Source: a virus
Length of the DNA stretch: 64,000 nt
Direction: 5' to 3' (one strand)
Virus record (IMG/VR): IMGVR_UViG_3300024999_000044
Location: 1 to 64,000 of that record
The position numbers and the translations under genes were made by a program. A model generated the notes under the pieces. It was given only the letters and a program-made list of their open reading frames with translations, searched no databases and was not told where the DNA came from. This document shows positions 30,815 to 50,390 of the stretch, in pieces (within the stretch, counting starts at the first letter, position 1; every line of letters begins with the position of its first letter).

Positions 30815-31046
30815 TGGCATAGATAGATTATTAAAATTGATGGTTGTATGTATGTGGATAGGAGTGGCATCCATTGTAGGTGGGGCGGGGTGGGGAATAT
30901 ATTATGTATTTACACGAGTGTTGCAGTTGCTTAGCTCATTAAGAGCGAGCCCCCGATATAGCCTAGTTGATTTTAGATTACCCCGTTTTGCTAGCTTGTC
31001 TATTTATAGACGATTTGCTAGTGGGGGTAAGAGCGAGCCCCGATAG
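30807..31046 (+). CDS. small membrane protein; the 3' end runs into a GC-rich repeat region and is probably over-extended
   Basis: Hydrophobic N-terminus. Confidence 0.3.
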   Translation: MCDGIDRLLKLMVVCMWIGVASIVGGAGWGIYYVFTRVLQLLSSLRASPRYSLVDFRLPRFASLSIYRRFASGGKSEPR

Positions 31047-31055
31047 GGGCGAGCG
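31030..31055. repeat. GC-rich hairpin element GAGCGAGCCCCGATAGGGGCGAGCGG, family copy
   Basis: Related copies at about 30944 (partial), 32746 and 32861, and inverted at 48940 and 50364. Confidence 0.5.
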
Positions 31056-31137
31056 GTACATCTAGGCCCGCCTACCAGAAACATACCATTTTTCTTATCG
31101 GCGTAGTATGACCGCTAACTAATCATATATGTAGAGG

Positions 31138-31401
31138 ATGTGTAAGAACGTAATGGCGTCACACCTAACCACCGCGCTAGGCGCATCCCGGTACGACATT
31201 GACCTTAGCTTTAAGGAGTCAGTTCACAATACTACGCCCACCTGCCTAGCGTGTGGCCAACCAGCCGTCTATCGGCTAGTGGCCAAGCATGATGGGGTAA
31301 ATAGTCAAGCTGTGCAGTCAAGCGGTTATGTCTGCGAGTATCATTTATCAGTGCAACCTATATTTAGCCCTAAGGACTTTGGCATACGCTTATTAGAATA
31401 G
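31138..31401 (+). CDS. hypothetical Cys-containing protein
   Basis: Track ORF. Confidence 0.45.
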   Translation: MCKNVMASHLTTALGASRYDIDLSFKESVHNTTPTCLACGQPAVYRLVAKHDGVNSQAVQSSGYVCEYHLSVQPIFSPKDFGIRLLE

Positions 31402-31413
31402 GAAGGTGATATT

Positions 31414-32079
31414 ATGGCTATGGTACCAACCCCGGCTAAACCTACACAGCTGGAGACTAAGTACTACAAATTAGAAAAGCTATGTGCATGGGAACATATC
31501 TCACAGCTTAATAGTAGACTCTTAGATGGGGAGTCCCCTACTAGGCTATCAGACTGGTGTAGGCTACATGGATTTAGCATCTCTATTCAGAAGTTGTATG
31601 AATATAAGGCCCTACTACAGAGCTCCCTAGCTAAGGAGATAACTGTAGAGAAGCTATTAGGCATTAGTGCCGCAGGGATTCCTACCCCTAGACAGTCCAT
31701 CATGCTACCTCCTATTGTGCACCAACAGGCTAAAACCCAAGTACGCAATGAACTTCAGGTGCTAGACTTAGTGATACAGCGCGGGTTTGATAGCTTACTG
31801 GATGCCAAGGAAGTTAGTTTATCTGACACTCTTAAGGCCATAGAGATGAAGAATAAGCTGACACAGGGTAAGCACGCTGGACTTACTGAATTTGGTCTAG
31901 AACAGGTACGTGAGCTGGAGGATAAGAAGTTTGCTGCTATACTTGAGATAATCAAGGAGTATGTACCTTCAGATAAGTGGGAAGAAATGGATAAGTCTAT
32001 TGCCGATGTGGAGTATGCTTATTACAAGGAGCACGCTCCTGAATACCTGAAACAATATGAAGATGCTCAGACTGAATAG
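31414..32079 (+). CDS. hypothetical protein
   Basis: Track ORF; GGAAGG RBS. Confidence 0.5.
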   Translation: MAMVPTPAKPTQLETKYYKLEKLCAWEHISQLNSRLLDGESPTRLSDWCRLHGFSISIQKLYEYKALLQSSLAKEITVEKLLGISAAGIPTPRQSIMLPPIVHQQAKTQVRNELQVLDLVIQRGFDSLLDAKEVSLSDTLKAIEMKNKLTQGKHAGLTEFGLEQVRELEDKKFAAILEIIKEYVPSDKWEEMDKSIADVEYAYYKEHAPEYLKQYEDAQTE

Positions 32080-32087
32080 GTAAGGAG

Positions 32088-32339
32088 GTGATAAAGATGA
32101 CAAGCCCTATTGATACCATAGTATCCCAGATAGGTATGCCGAGCAGTCTGACAGTAAGATCCTGCGTAGACCATGGTAAGTTCTTAGTACCTAAACATAG
32201 TAAATTTAAGTGCCCAGGTTGTGCTAACCTAAACAGCATACCTGATGGTACAGGAGGTAACGGTGACACGGCACTCATTAATGAGGCTAAGGTTGTAACG
32301 TTGAATGCTATGAAACATTATATTAGTTTGGGGATGTAG
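32088..32339 (+). CDS. hypothetical protein
   Basis: Track ORF; AAGGAGG RBS. Confidence 0.45.
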   Translation: MIKMTSPIDTIVSQIGMPSSLTVRSCVDHGKFLVPKHSKFKCPGCANLNSIPDGTGGNGDTALINEAKVVTLNAMKHYISLGM

Positions 32340-32383
32340 TGTGGCCAGTAGGGCTAAAAAATAAATATTTGCCAAGTTTGCAA

Positions 32384-32420
32384 TAGAGGAACACTATTTT
32401 ATATAGTGTTCCTCTTGCTG
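32384..32420 (+). terminator. terminator-like hairpin
   Basis: AGAGGAACACTA-ttttata-TAGTGTTCCTCT. Confidence 0.4.
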
Positions 32421-32745
32421 TTATGGCTGTGGTATGGGTGATATATGGTGTACCTACGGGGGAGCTTCCTTTTTTAGGAAGAGGGGTGACATTAAAACAT
32501 ATAATTTGTAAGATAACCCTACCAGTGATATCATAATGCGAACGATTTGGATTCTATATAAGTAACATAATTTTTTTAACATAAGAAGAGGGGCCAAACG
32601 TACAAAACCATACAAACCACATAAGGTTGGTGAAGGCCATATATTACTGGAAGAGAAACACCAGTAAGCATATGGACAATGATTACTATAATATGGTTAC
32701 TTCTTAATAGACTTTATTATATCTTACTATTTCAGAGCAACTGTA

Positions 32746-32765
32746 GGAGCCCCGTTAGGGGCGAG
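32746..32765. repeat. GC-rich hairpin element GGAGCCCCGTTAGGGGCGAG, family copy
   Basis: Read directly. Confidence 0.45.
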
Positions 32766-32860
32766 TACTAGTTTGCTCTTGGCGAAGCCAGTAACCACCT
32801 ATAACACAGTATAATCACTTGTAGTTGTATTACAGTAATAATACTCATTACAGATGATTT

Positions 32861-48705: not shown

Positions 48706-48939
48706 GTCTACTTCTCCTTGTTTATCTGCTTCGAGCTAGGGAATATGTGCTTGCCAAGTGCCTAATCAAAAGGTCTATGTGTTCTGCGTGTACTGCAGAG
48801 CTAAAGGAAAGCACATTCGTTTTTGACCCCACCCCCCTGTTTTTTACTAGTAAACGGAGGCCCCCCCACCCCCACCCCTTAGAAGCTTCAAAACTTTATA
48901 AGTCGGTGAGAATACCTGGCACTTTCAAGATTTAAGTAG

Positions 48940-48966
48940 TATGCTCGCCCGCTAAAGCGGGCTCGC
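48940..48966. repeat. GC-rich hairpin element TATGCTCGCCCGCTAAAGCGGGCTCGC, family copy
   Basis: Near-identical arms to the copy at 50364; followed by TTTTAC. Confidence 0.55.
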
Positions 48967-49112
48967 TTTTACACTTCTCTAGGTTAGCTCTAAGTACCCT
49001 ATTTTCACATTTAAGGTCCTCATTCTCACTCGCTAATCTATCTATTTGTTCTATCATCCATCGGCTGTTGCCATCGGAACACATAGAATCACTCCCTTAA
49101 TAAACACTAAGT

Positions 49113-49307
49113 TTATTCCCCTCGAAGTATGTCTAATACCTTTTTTAACCCATGCCGTACTTTATCTACTCGAAGATTTACTCTGTCAGAATACGTACCA
49201 GCGTTGATATCAAATCTCCTTATTTCATGCATGTCTTCAAAAGATTCAACTATCTTATCAACTACCTCCTCATACTCTGATTCAGTTAATACTACTCCCC
49301 TTTGCAC
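49113..49307 (-). CDS. hypothetical small protein
   Basis: Track ORF. Confidence 0.35.
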   Translation of the reverse strand: MQRGVVLTESEYEEVVDKIVESFEDMHEIRRFDINAGTYSDRVNLRVDKVRHGLKKVLDILRGE

Positions 49308-49464
49308 ACCCCACCCCTTTCAAGTTTTAAGTTTTAAGTAGCCTCGCACGTCCTGACGGACGTGCTCGTCTCTACCCACCTTGCTCCGACCACTCGTCTA
49401 TTCCATCCATAGTGTTCTGGTACGCCGACAACCTGCCTTCCCACAGTCCTAGTTCCCGTCCACC

Positions 49465-49749
49465 TCAATAAGTATGAGTTTGTCCTGGATTATCCCCATG
49501 TGATTTCTTAATCTCCCTAATCCTTTTCTCTGCGTGTGTTATTCGTTTAGGTGGATAATCCTTCATACTCCTCTTCACTTCATAGTCTGTACACCCTGCT
49601 ATCCTCACAATATGTGGGTAACATCCCATGTGCCTCACTCTCTGAACATGTACATTACATATATGAGGCATACCATTAGAACGTGTTCTGTGTTGATCTT
49701 CCTCTGTTGGGTATAGGTGTACACACCCATCGCAATATTCCACAGACAC
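49465..49749 (-). CDS. Cys/His-rich hypothetical protein
   Basis: Track ORF. Confidence 0.4.
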   Translation of the reverse strand: MSVEYCDGCVHLYPTEEDQHRTRSNGMPHICNVHVQRVRHMGCYPHIVRIAGCTDYEVKRSMKDYPPKRITHAEKRIREIKKSHGDNPGQTHTY

Positions 49750-49755
49750 CTCTCC

Positions 49756-50043
49756 TCACAGTATCCGTTTCCACCCATTAAAGGTAGCTACTGGCACCAC
49801 ACACCCCTCTTGTCCTACAGTTGTTTTACTAATCAATGGCAGATAATATGGGTGTATTTCCCCCTCCGGTACTGTATCAAAACAGTCCCCTAAAGCGGTG
49901 TACTCTATCGCCCTGGGCTGGTATAACATCTCTGCCCTAACCACTATTAACCCCTTAAATACTTCCTTAACCATATCTGGGTTATCTTGGATATCGTCAA
50001 CAGATATTGAGAACCTTCCCATTCTGGGTTTAACTAAGTTCAT
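49756..50043 (-). CDS. hypothetical protein
   Basis: Track ORF. Confidence 0.4.
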   Translation of the reverse strand: MNLVKPRMGRFSISVDDIQDNPDMVKEVFKGLIVVRAEMLYQPRAIEYTALGDCFDTVPEGEIHPYYLPLISKTTVGQEGCVVPVATFNGWKRIL

Positions 50044-50065
50044 TTACCACTCACTCCCTAATGAA

Positions 50066-50314
50066 TTACTTTTTGTACGCTTTGTTTTTCCCGACTAATA
50101 GAGTAACAACATCCCACATGATTACCATAAAGAACACTGGGGCCAATATATACTCCACAATAATTACAACCCACTTATAGTTATCTAGTAGGTCTATCAA
50201 CATGTCTGATATCATCGGGCTGTTGGCATCCTTCAGATTCTCAATAACACTAGCTCTCATTGTACCCCAGGTTATCTCATTGTACAGACATGAGATACTC
50301 CCATAATAAGCCAC
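50066..50314 (-). CDS. small membrane protein; an upstream 24-codon ORF with a good RBS in another frame hints at a possible frameshift
   Basis: Track ORF; the alternative ATGCTGGATAAC… follows GGAGGTTGGGT. Confidence 0.35.
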   Translation of the reverse strand: MAYYGSISCLYNEITWGTMRASVIENLKDANSPMISDMLIDLLDNYKWVVIIVEYILAPVFFMVIMWDVVTLLVGKNKAYKK

Positions 50315-50363
50315 ACTAGCCCTACCTTTATAGTGTTATCCAGCATACCCAACCTCCACTCAC

Positions 50364-50390
50364 TATGCTCGCCCGCCTAGGCGGGCTCGC
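50364..50390. repeat. GC-rich hairpin element TATGCTCGCCCGCCTAGGCGGGCTCGC, family copy
   Basis: Same orientation as the 48940 copy. Together they bracket a 1.4-kb four-gene cassette. Confidence 0.55.

Follow-up and report, generated by a model that had tools for sequence, protein, structure and literature searches.

The question raised by this locus is what a set of GC-rich stem-loops is doing beside small gene groups in a phage genome, and whether these elements mark inserted cassettes, end transcripts or serve as some other signal. The window, the whole 64-kb stretch of DNA analysed here, is an SPO1-like phage from groundwater metagenomes. It contains six full copies and one half copy of the stem-loop, distributed over two clusters only, at 30.9–32.9 kb and 48.9–50.4 kb. 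The pattern GAGCCCS-N3-8-SGGGC has five matches in 64 kb, with 0.05 expected from shuffles, and the exact form GCGAGCCC-N8-GGGCGAGC has two, with 0.06 expected. The hairpin family postulated in an earlier note on this DNA is borne out by these counts, and full hairpins stand at every place it had named except 30944, which was mistaken for a hairpin and is the half copy listed first below. As a catalogue the note was correct for its other members but incomplete, since a full member at 49344–49367 on the minus strand had been missed. The left cluster and its neighbouring features are as follows:

30942–30960, plus strand: half copy with left arm and loop only (AGAGCGAGCCCCCGATAT), no right arm
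30961–31028, plus strand: spacer of ~68 nt between the half and the full copy, which in a 131-nt fold can form its own imperfect hairpin (TTACCCC…GGGGGTAA)
31029–31058, plus strand: h31035, GCGA/GCCCC gata GGGGC/GAGC, last element of the unique region, abutting the predicted left border of the terminal repeat
31061–31090, plus strand: conserved block TCTAGGCCCGCCTACCAGAAACATACCAT, predicted first bases of the terminal repeat from the alignment with a sister phage and with the left ends of reference phages
31138–32339, plus strand: unit of three genes encoding 87, 221 and 80 aa, homologues of SPO1 gp36.1/36.2/36.3
32385–32415, plus strand: ordinary terminator-type hairpin with a 13-bp stem, closing the three-gene unit
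32741–32770, plus strand: h32747, GA/GCCCC gtta GGGGC/GA, with a predicted 12-bp lower stem
32857–32887, minus strand: h32863, GA/GCCCGC ttt GCGGGC/GA

The copy h31035 follows the last rightward genes of the unique region, 86 nt upstream of the first gene of the next unit. Behind this first three-gene module, h32747 and h32863 converge across a 100-nt AT-rich spacer; h32863 has no annotated gene upstream on its own strand. The right cluster comprises:

48870–48885, plus strand: C-rich block CCCCACCCCTTAGAAG, which in reference phages marks the right border of the repeat
48939–48970, minus strand: h48945, GCGA/GCCCGC ttta GCGGGC/GAGC, with which the unique region begins at the right border predicted for the repeat
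49338–49373, minus strand: h49344, GA/GCACGTCC gtca GGACGTGC/GA, whose stem covaries, with a lower stem of 7 bp predicted
50363–50394, minus strand: h50369, GCGA/GCCCGC ctag GCGGGC/GAGC
48932–50314, minus strand: five small ORFs (82, 95, 92, 64 and 50 aa) between the three right-hand hairpins, without PHROG or Pfam assignment

The copies 50369, 49344 and 48945 form a series on a leftward operon running into the repeat. The outermost two are near-identical direct repeats, and their 13-nt left arms (TATGCTCGCCCGC) are identical, as the earlier note had seen; its "four-gene" unit between 48940 and 50364 turned out to hold five called ORFs, divided 3+2 by the additional hairpin h49344. The latter lies 98 nt past a stop codon and 36 nt ahead of the next start, h50369 lies 10 nt past the stop codon of a 682-aa DUF8224/YfaP-like gene, and the 50-aa ORF extends into h48945.

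Read on the local coding strand, all six full copies share the same plan: a GA dinucleotide, a GC-rich stem of 5–8 bp, a loop of 3–4 nt, the returning stem and a second GA. The flanking GA dinucleotides can form tandem G·A/A·G pairs, which two additional pairs close in most cases (GCGAGC…GCGAGC), and this extension is confined to the transcribed strand. In h31035, h48945, h50369 and the sister-phage copy the tandem G·A is symmetric and without bulge; a kink-turn, which requires a three-nt bulge followed by tandem G·A, was rejected on this ground. The stem-proximal GCGAGC is kept while the stems covary: in an alignment of the six copies with that of the sister phage, 91% of the cells are paired and five of the eight pairs show two-sided change, a result reached by one in 500 shuffles. 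The loops differ in all seven copies, the sister-phage one included (GAUA, GUUA, UUU, UUUA, GUCA, CUAG and GUAA), so that no loop-reading protein is implied. The core 5'-GCGAGC-3', self-pairing through two G·A mismatches, is literally the tandem sheared G·A motif r(GGCGAGCC)2 reportedly described by SantaLucia and Turner in 1993, which is a structural motif and no functional family; in the window phage it lengthens the hairpin stem.

A covariance model found no additional member in ~305 kb of the window phage, the sister phage and the reference phages. No copy was present in the 17 kb past the window ends, nor at many other operon ends in the ~81 kb examined. Rfam covariance models matched neither cluster at E ≤ 1, except that microRNA models hit the ordinary terminator at 32385 by chance. 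In viral and metagenome collections, scans for the exact motif yielded nothing besides the sister phage and unrelated, mostly GC-rich contigs. Overall, the element is a lineage-specific, strand-specific stem-loop of ~30 nt.

The three genes behind h31035 are not peculiar to this phage. The terminal repeats of SPO1, Goe2, JL, Exiguobacterium phage vB_EalM-132 and three metagenomic relatives (L198–L200) all open with the gp36.1/36.2/36.3 module, whose first gene starts 125 nt from the physical left end in SPO1 and Goe2, 76 nt in JL and 89 nt in the Exiguobacterium phage. The unit at 31138–32339 is therefore a conserved module at a fixed genome position and no mobile cassette. Family hairpins are absent from all seven of these relatives, though the adjacent sequence blocks are kept. 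In the sister phage the left hairpin is retained in position, its stem having changed in a compensatory way to GCCCGC/GCGGGC; ~210 nt upstream of it lies an analogous truncated copy (AAAGCGAGCC), and a 15-nt tandem-repeat array occupies the place of the 30961–31028 spacer. The noncoding stretch downstream of h31035 is conserved between the two sister phages, which makes it probable that the next unit is started by signals of its own. There is no family hairpin to the right of the three-gene unit in the sister phage, and the segment at ~32340–33950, with h32747, h32863 and a LAGLIDADG-like endonuclease gene, is missing from it.

On the grounds of this homology the terminal repeat is predicted to extend from ~31,046–31,066 to ~48,905–48,939, a length of ~17.9 kb. 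On the left, the end sequences of SPO1, Goe2, JL, the Exiguobacterium phage and L198–L200, of the type GTCCCGCCCCC / CCGTACCGCC…TATAGG, align with 31061–31090. Homology between the window and the sister phage begins at 31061, right after the hairpin, and the two phages agree in 27 of 29 positions of the block, compared with ~79% identity for the genes on either side. On the right, the C-rich block, in a pattern composed after the sequences had been inspected, is single in the window, SPO1 (1–26 kb), Goe2 (1–16 kb), the Exiguobacterium phage (1–27 kb) and JL, and in each of the four reference phages its end lies 20–45 nt left of (inside) the right border of the repeat. Moreover, the unique regions of the Exiguobacterium phage (CTATGCGCCCCCAAGC) and of SPO1 and Goe2 (CCTTGCTCCCAAGC) open with bases that align to the left arm of h48945 as read on the plus strand (TATGCTCGCCCGCTAAAGC). 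The copies 31035 and 48945 thus form an inverted pair adjoining the predicted borders from outside. Their distance from these independently predicted borders is ~10–35 nt, for which the chance, roughly estimated from random noncoding placement, is ~1/1,000. Tandem repeats occur at the same place beside the left border in SPO1, L198 and L199.

That the hairpins bracket gene groups stands as a bare observation, and it is what had led to their being read as attachment or recombination sites of inserted cassettes (morons) or as a MITE-like family. Apart from the bracketing, the near-identity of 48945 and 50369, the half copy and the loss of the h32747–h32863 segment from the sister phage speak for such an origin, as do the five right-hand ORFs without family assignment and a neighbouring 144-aa gene without homologue in 5.8 billion proteins. 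The earlier note had itself named relatives carrying the same genes without hairpins as evidence against cassettes, and its proposed comparison of related phages gave precisely this: unit 1 is a core module, found at the same locus in many hairpin-free relatives, and the sister phage has the left copy only. Neither target-site duplications nor terminal inverted repeats around a mobile unit were seen flanking the units, and no integrase or recombinase was found beside them. A MITE would be expected in many dispersed copies, as opposed to six in two clusters, and the searches of viral and metagenome contigs brought up no related phage other than the sister. The related idea of cassette shuffling by T4-type promoter stem-loops (PeSL) was rejected because the hairpins are uncoupled from the early promoter consensus: none of the at least 18 copies of the TTGACT-17-TGnTATAAT family in this phage adjoins a family hairpin. 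The cassette reading is largely refuted for unit 1 and is very improbable for the family as a whole. The suggestion that the copies are plain terminators was half right. Like rho-independent terminators, they are GC-rich stem-loops on the sense strand at gene 3' ends, intergenic and downstream of genes. However, they lack the U-tract and are therefore not classical intrinsic terminators: in each of the six, fewer than three U occur within 6 nt of the stem, a terminator consensus scan flagged no copy on the sense strand (only h48945 was listed, on the non-coding strand), and the phage's ordinary terminators elsewhere are long A/T-flanked stems. Short sense-strand GC stems near operon borders, with GCGAGC conserved while the stems covary, could also be operator or antitermination hairpins comparable to λ nut/boxB, or sites for a phage regulator reading GCGAGC or the G·A pairs. 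Recognition of the boxB type reads the loop, which is different in every copy here; no boxA-like companion motif was found upstream of the copies and no candidate RNA-binding partner was identified, so that a role of this kind is improbable.

The position of the border pair invites a further reading, possible though rather unlikely, in which the family provides signals at the DNA level by which the terminal repeat is cut or duplicated. The inverted pair would enclose the unique region, which would begin with h48945 and end with h31035, each flush with the ~17.9-kb repeat and pointing into it. A terminase or accessory nuclease would recognise the element, or its cruciform or snap-back form, and cut at a fixed distance on the repeat-facing side; alternatively, the hairpin would prime strand-displacement synthesis duplicating the repeat. 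As for the remaining copies, they would be either alternative sites or relics of duplication. For the T7 concatemer junction, Chung, Nardone and Hinkle reportedly proposed in 1990 that a hairpin or inverted repeat primes duplication of the terminal repeat. This T7 inverted repeat lies where the unique sequence ends, just outside the direct terminal repeat, and h31035 has the corresponding position. In contrast to T7, with one site and a 160-bp repeat, the window phage has a predicted repeat of ~18 kb, a second, mirrored copy at the other border and four extra copies; its ends are predicted by homology, and the reference SPO1-like phages lack the hairpin. Both borders fit the scheme, the left one by the module start distances and the aligned left-end block, the right one by the C-rich block at 48870 and the first bases of the unique region. 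It also agrees with the restriction of the family to the two border neighbourhoods and with the half copies and tandem repeats beside the left copy in both sister phages. The origin of exact terminally redundant genomes is acknowledged to be poorly understood (PMC13595956). Against it, the borders are themselves homology predictions, and the reference phages and L198–L200 have the border blocks without the hairpin, so a conserved packaging mechanism does not need it. Four of the six copies are situated 0.4–1.7 kb off the predicted borders, at intercistronic sites, and in duplex DNA no role is evident for a strand-specific G·A feature. Comparison of the repeat-internal flanks of the two border copies gave no significant similarity, and attempts to identify the neighbouring 221-aa protein as a small terminase were unsuccessful. 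The full claim, that inverted copies flush with an ~18-kb direct repeat terminate the unique part on either side and act as cis sites for concatemer nicking or cutting and for hairpin-guided or -primed repeat duplication, is doubtful. If true, these would be the first sequence-defined signal for the generation of a long terminal repeat in Herelleviridae.

The best explanation, which we hold tentatively, is that the copies work as RNA stem-loops on the sense strand, generating, processing or protecting 3' ends where modules meet and insulating the repeat from read-through. We infer that the RNA form is the active one and that its role is processing or insulating. The strand that carries the G·A feature is also the one that encodes the local genes, both in the sister phage and at each of the five sites situated in gene arrays. 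Sense RNA folds 2.4–3 kcal/mol more stably than antisense in five of the six copies, with no difference for h32863 and 1.3 kcal/mol for the sister-phage copy. Within contexts of 46–53 nt most copies are predicted to fold into longer, interrupted helices of 14–17 bp with internal loops (z of −3 to −5), the weaker ones being h32863 with only 12 bp and h50369 with only 8 bp (z −2.1).

If the copies act at the RNA level, 3' ends may be made there by endonucleolytic processing of the interrupted helix, as at the RNase III sites of SP82/SPO1 and T7; alternatively, the copies might be barriers against 3' exonucleases. Expression and stability of the neighbouring modules would thereby be separated, and transcription running on into the repeat's early host-takeover genes would be limited. 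In PMC1935012 and in PMC4838370 (citing Panganiban & Whiteley 1983), SP82/SPO1 early mRNAs are described as having Bs-RNase III sites with internal loops and a single cut on the 3' side; PMC3896407 (citing Stewart 1998) reports RNase III and termination sites in the SPO1 terminal repeat. Like these SP82/SPO1 sites and T7 R0.3–R1.3, the family consists of repeated sense-strand intercistronic stem-loops of polycistronic phage transcripts, with predicted helices interrupted by internal loops. The SP82/SPO1 and T7 hairpins stay at the 3' end after cleavage and stabilise the upstream message, SP82/SPO1 belonging to the same phage group. In comparison with them, cleavage in the family is putative and the predicted helices (8–17 bp plus two G·A pairs) are shorter than the canonical RNase III substrate, which counts against RNA processing. 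Moreover, what the family conserves is a symmetric tandem G·A (GCGAGC/GCGAGC) in place of the internal loops of the known sites, and it numbers only six copies clustered at the predicted terminal-repeat borders. This confinement to two clusters counts against a general RNA element, which would be expected to be more widespread; the proximity of two copies to the predicted repeat borders and the want of an annotated gene ahead of h32863 likewise speak against the RNA reading.

An RNA-level reading also receives support from outside the family. The flank (C)UACUACUUAAAU lies 3' of h48945 and h49344 and also of a hairpin of a different class at 42695–42710, situated 11 nt past the stop of a gp51-like gene and ~15 nt ahead of the next ribosome-binding site; this common 3' flank points to a shared RNA-level intercistronic module.

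The hairpin positions claimed in the earlier note were recovered except at 30944, where a left arm and loop are present but no full hairpin (half copy, 30942-30960). Together with the newly found h49344, the family comprises six full GC-rich stem-loops, named by their start positions:

31035-31052, plus strand, full hairpin h31035
32747-32764, plus strand, full hairpin h32747
32863-32881, minus strand, full hairpin h32863
48945-48964, minus strand, full hairpin h48945
49344-49367, minus strand, full hairpin h49344
50369-50388, minus strand, full hairpin h50369

The pattern GAGCCCS-N3-8-SGGGC matched five times against 0.05 expected, far above chance, and GCGAGCCC-N8-GGGCGAGC gave two exact matches against 0.06 expected. 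A scan for perfect stems with GA on either side yielded the architecture common to all copies: on the local coding strand, GA, a GC-rich stem of 5-8 bp closed by a 3-4-nt loop, and GA again. The stem of h49344 (GCACGTCC/GGACGTGC) is unlike that of the other copies, with the GA flanks retained. The flanks of h31035, h48945 and h50369 are GCGAGC…GCGAGC, an apparent direct repeat that is yet self-complementary via two G·A mismatches and is the tandem sheared G·A motif r(GGCGAGCC)2. Folding predicts a helix with a 2x2 internal loop and, in most copies, an additional lower stem (z-scores from -2.1 to -5.1). When the six copies were aligned with the one from the sister phage, a relative from the same aquifer samples, 91% of cells were paired; compensatory two-sided changes occurred in five of the eight pairs, a level reached in 1 of 500 shuffles, and slid-register controls collapsed.

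A covariance model built on these seven copies found no further member in ~305 kb plus 98 kb of sequence covering the window phage and its sister, 17 kb past the window ends and a set of relatives that included SPO1, Goe2, JL and the Exiguobacterium phage. Rfam holds no family matching the hairpin. The nearest relatives of the 682-aa DUF8224/YfaP-like gene, whose stop codon lies 10 nt from h50369, have no family hairpins at their loci (at most 59% identity; L118-L123, L191). Motif scans of viral and metagenome contigs returned only the sister phage and unrelated, mostly GC-rich contigs. Nine small, unrelated viral contigs of IMG/VR (L012, L027, L045, L058, L083, L117, L069, L072 and L100; GC ~0.46) carry hairpins of the same build, such as GCGAGCCCG ttt CGGGCGAG and GCGAGCCCC ttta GGGGCGAG, with two of them 4.1 kb apart in L117; the tandem-G·A-extended GC hairpin thus recurs outside the window-phage lineage.

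Among known systems, the family belongs neither to MITEs or att sites nor to PeSLs (no early promoter is adjacent), kink-turns (there is no bulge), boxB hairpins or Rfam families. The suggestion of plain terminators stands in so far as the copies do sit 3' of genes; a 3' U-tract is missing in all six, so these are not intrinsic terminators, and ordinary A/T-flanked terminators are numerous in the window phage. What remains is a compact, covarying, strand-specific, tandem-G·A-based hairpin family confined to one phage lineage and delimiting expression modules. Functional statements on the hairpins are all drawn from sequence.

Judged by its genes, the window phage is an SPO1-like myovirus of the Herelleviridae type. 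Its large terminase TerL (57651-59291) shares 70% identity with the enzymes of Bacillus phages JL and CP-51 and 68% with that of SPO1, and several of its genes are members of the SPO1 gp51 family. Circularly permuted contigs of ~141.8 kb from groundwater metagenomes (PRJNA268031) encode proteins identical to those of the window; a megablast search of phage records returned nothing matching, that is, no close nucleotide relative. Three to four diverged gp51 paralogues of the SPO1 type are present (38740-39122, 41222-41626, 42721-43113 and 22175-22912), three of them sharing 69-79% nucleotide identity, and they form the break points of several sister-phage metagenome assemblies.

The three-gene unit behind h31035 (31138-32339, plus strand) corresponds to SPO1 gp36.1-36.3. 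Its 221-aa protein (31414-32079) is a member of phrog_1007 and shares 43-49% identity with SPO1 gp36.2, JL gp2 and homologues. The same module opens the long terminal repeat, at the physical left end of the genome, in SPO1, Goe2, JL and Exiguobacterium phage vB_EalM-132, where its first gene starts at nt 125, 125, 76 and 89, respectively; all three genes are present in SPO1 and Goe2, and the Exiguobacterium record annotates the first two only. The layout is identical in three metagenomic relatives. No family hairpin was found in these four phages or in the three metagenomic relatives, all of which carry the module. Since the relatives hold the genes without the hairpins, an outcome that the earlier note itself named as refuting its reading, the unit is, on this comparative evidence, a conserved core module and not the inserted cassette proposed in the earlier note. 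It is thus most improbable that the hairpins are cassette att sites or MITEs; as mobile-cassette sites they would have been interesting, and that reading does not hold. A small-terminase identity for the 221-aa protein is a possibility that was kept out of the evidence: distant homologues are annotated DUF3486 in some records, searches gave no Pfam match and no PDB sequence match, and the AlphaFold model reached a pLDDT of only 70, with nothing below E = 1 in the fold search.

The sister phage, whose 221-aa protein is 93% identical and whose three-gene unit shares ~79% nucleotide identity with that of the window, carries a single family hairpin, in the corresponding position 112 nt 5' of the first gene. 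Its stem GCCCGC/GCGGGC differs from GCCCC/GGGGC in the window in a compensatory manner. A truncated left-arm copy also occurs there, farther upstream and separated from the full copy by a 15-nt tandem-repeat array; in the window the half copy and the full copy are ~68 nt apart. Nucleotide homology between both phages starts at window 31061, immediately right of the hairpin, and 27 of the next 29 positions (TCTAGGCNCGCCTACCAGAAACATANCAT) are identical. The positions of h32747 and h32863 have no counterpart in the sister phage; of the two phages, only that of the window has the segment ~32340-33950, which contains a LAGLIDADG-like endonuclease gene. This free-standing gene (33128-33973, phrog_4645, motif YWLGFIYGNGSL) lies within the missing 1.6 kb; the two ~280-aa proteins starting at 33128 and 43575 are not paralogues. 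The 144-aa and 238-aa genes, used to seek the right border of the sister phage, have no relatives.

The left border of the terminal repeat was predicted from the physical ends of the references, which read GTCCCGCCCCCATAGGAC… in SPO1 and Goe2, TGTCCCGCCCCTTACG… in the Exiguobacterium phage and GGGTGCCCGTACCGCCCCCTATAGGGAC… in JL, with a similar reading in relatives L198-L200. The window block 31061-31090 (…GGCCCGCCTACCAG…ACATACCATTTTTCT), 73 nt 5' of the first gene, aligns with these ends, best with JL; the predicted left border therefore lies at ~31,046-31,066, and h31035 (31029-31058) would be the final element of the unique region. Just left of this border, where the unique region ends on its right, tandem repeats occur in the window (30141-30296, 3 x 52 nt) and at the same place in the sister phage (L136, 9403-9585, the 15-nt array), at the end of the SPO1 record and in L198/L199 (~2420-2590); the units in SPO1-type phages are of 60-100 nt. 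The window lacks the SPO1 border motif AGGAGTCCCGTTTCC and shows no enrichment of GTCCCG, and GCCCGCC plus GGCCCGCCTACC was weak and unconvincing as a two-border motif. By analogy with SPO1 (GGGAC cct|GTCCC) and JL (CACCC gtttg|GGGTG), a cut inside a hairpin loop is a possibility; the stems in question have just 5 bp, and the Exiguobacterium phage is without the feature. The ends of the Shbh1 record were uninformative.

The right border was predicted with the help of a C-rich block, CCCCnCCCC(C)TAAAAG, of which SPO1 (13149; searched over 1-26 kb), Goe2 (13794; 1-16 kb), the Exiguobacterium phage (14481; 1-27 kb) and JL (16233) each have one copy, as does the window (48870-48885); the pattern was written after the sequences had been seen, so its uniqueness is suggestive and not a formal test. 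In each reference phage the block ends within the repeat, 20-45 nt short of its right border, as computed from records with both repeat copies or as annotated. For SPO1 the figure of 13,185 bp is reportedly that of Stewart et al. 2009. The left arm and loop of h48945 align with the bases that open the unique region in reference phages:

SPO1 and Goe2, start of the unique region: CCTTGCTCCCAAGC
Exiguobacterium phage, start of the unique region: CTATGCGCCCCCAAGC
Window, left arm and loop of h48945: TATGCTCGCCCGCTAAAGC

The block TGC(T/G)C…CCC…AAGC opens the unique region, and both it and the C-rich block are conserved over several Spounavirinae lineages, making them candidate packaging signals. 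The right border is thereby predicted at ~48,905-48,939; the terminal repeat would be ~17.9 kb and the packaged genome ~160 kb, compared with a repeat of 14.5 kb in the Exiguobacterium phage and an annotated one of 16.3 kb in JL. With borders so placed, h48945 would open the unique region and h31035 would close it, the two forming an inverted pair that points into the repeat. By rough arithmetic, six copies set at random over ~15 kb of noncoding sequence would lie no more than 40 nt from each of the two predicted junctions in about 1 of 1,000 trials; between 28 and 56 kb, 26% of the sequence is noncoding. Both predictions derive from homology with SPO1, Goe2, JL and the Exiguobacterium phage, four reference genomes of at least three lineages, and the left-end block is found in three metagenomic relatives too. 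Assembly break points were discarded as evidence of physical ends, most lying at long palindromes or repeated paralogues. The independent short assembly SRR3309324_139945 (Logan, locus L125) ends at 48910, inside the predicted right-border interval; at its opposite end it stops at a long palindrome, as does a second contig at one of its ends (palindromes 52818-52853 and 30398-30429).

Our tentative preference is that the hairpins act in RNA, where they may make or protect 3' ends at module borders. The elements would form or guard RNA 3' ends where modules meet: three copies in series on the leftward operon running into the repeat, one behind the last of the rightward genes heading into it and a convergent pair behind the first module. 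This reading is preferred because, wherever a copy lies within a gene array and likewise in the sister phage, it is the coding strand that carries the asymmetric G·A feature; the sense fold is more stable than the antisense by 2.4-3 kcal/mol in five copies out of six; the hairpins stand directly past stop codons and ahead of the next start; the interrupted helices are like SP82/SPO1 and T7 RNase III sites (PMC1935012, PMC4838370, PMC3896407); and the 3' flank (C)UACUACUUAAAU is common to h48945, h49344 and an intercistronic hairpin of a different class within the repeat (42695-42710). In their working, phage intercistronic processing or 3'-stabilising hairpins would, by analogy, be closest to the family. 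The members of this different class, GC hairpins between genes of the minus strand (37828-37843, 42178-42195 and 42695-42710), have UACG tetraloops; the third is the one with the shared 3' flank. A boxB-type operator seems improbable, since every loop is different.

That the hairpins are DNA-level signals tied to the repeat borders is the other surviving reading, held to be somewhat less likely; such a role accounts, unlike one in RNA, for the confinement of the family to two repeat-border neighbourhoods, for the two copies flush with the junctions and for the half copies and tandem repeats beside the left one. It would resemble the T7 concatemer-junction hairpin, which is similar in position and has reportedly been proposed to prime duplication of the terminal repeat. 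However, four copies lie 0.4-1.7 kb off the junctions, the reference phages do without hairpins, the borders are predicted by homology, and the two border copies show no similarity in their repeat-internal flanks. The RNA and DNA roles do not exclude each other. If the hairpins act in RNA only, they would be an ordinary, if neat, case of intercistronic 3'-end elements.

How phages cut and duplicate long exact terminal repeats is still poorly understood (PMC13595956). The hairpin pair flush with both predicted junctions and the conserved junction blocks offer concrete test sites for this question. A useful by-product of the hairpin analysis, the blocks are conserved in the four reference genomes and give a homology-based map of both long-terminal-repeat borders for an uncultured SPO1-like phage; no description of them, for these phages or the window phage, was found in the open-access literature searched.

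Several further features of the window were observed. A family of at least 18 strong early promoters of the sigma-A type, conserved over an extended stretch (tTACTTGACTTTTcC…TGnGAtAAAATT), lies at 7109-34210 on the plus strand and 36727-43219 on the minus strand and extends far beyond the predicted terminal repeat. A 36-nt element (TAGCTAGGCGGGGGCTTCATCTAATGG, plus strand) occurs seven times at 35102-35137 and 39255-43338, often paired, 51 or 77 nt apart, immediately 5' of minus-strand early promoters; the copies could be sites for a regulator or a DNA-bending protein. A UvrD-like helicase gene with an intein containing a LAGLIDADG domain (12518-15769) adjoins that of an 832-aa protein with MVP_shoulder/vault-like Pfam matches (9691-12189), and a 69-aa gene at 47195-47404 is Acb2/Tad1-like (anti-CBASS/Thoeris sponge). 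A NUMOD3 endonuclease-like gene (56789-57661) overlaps at its end with the beginning of the large terminase gene, and two neighbouring large genes (580 aa; 873-aa ParB-like nuclease) have in common a 96% identical stretch of 71 nt (59575-59645 and 61962-62032).
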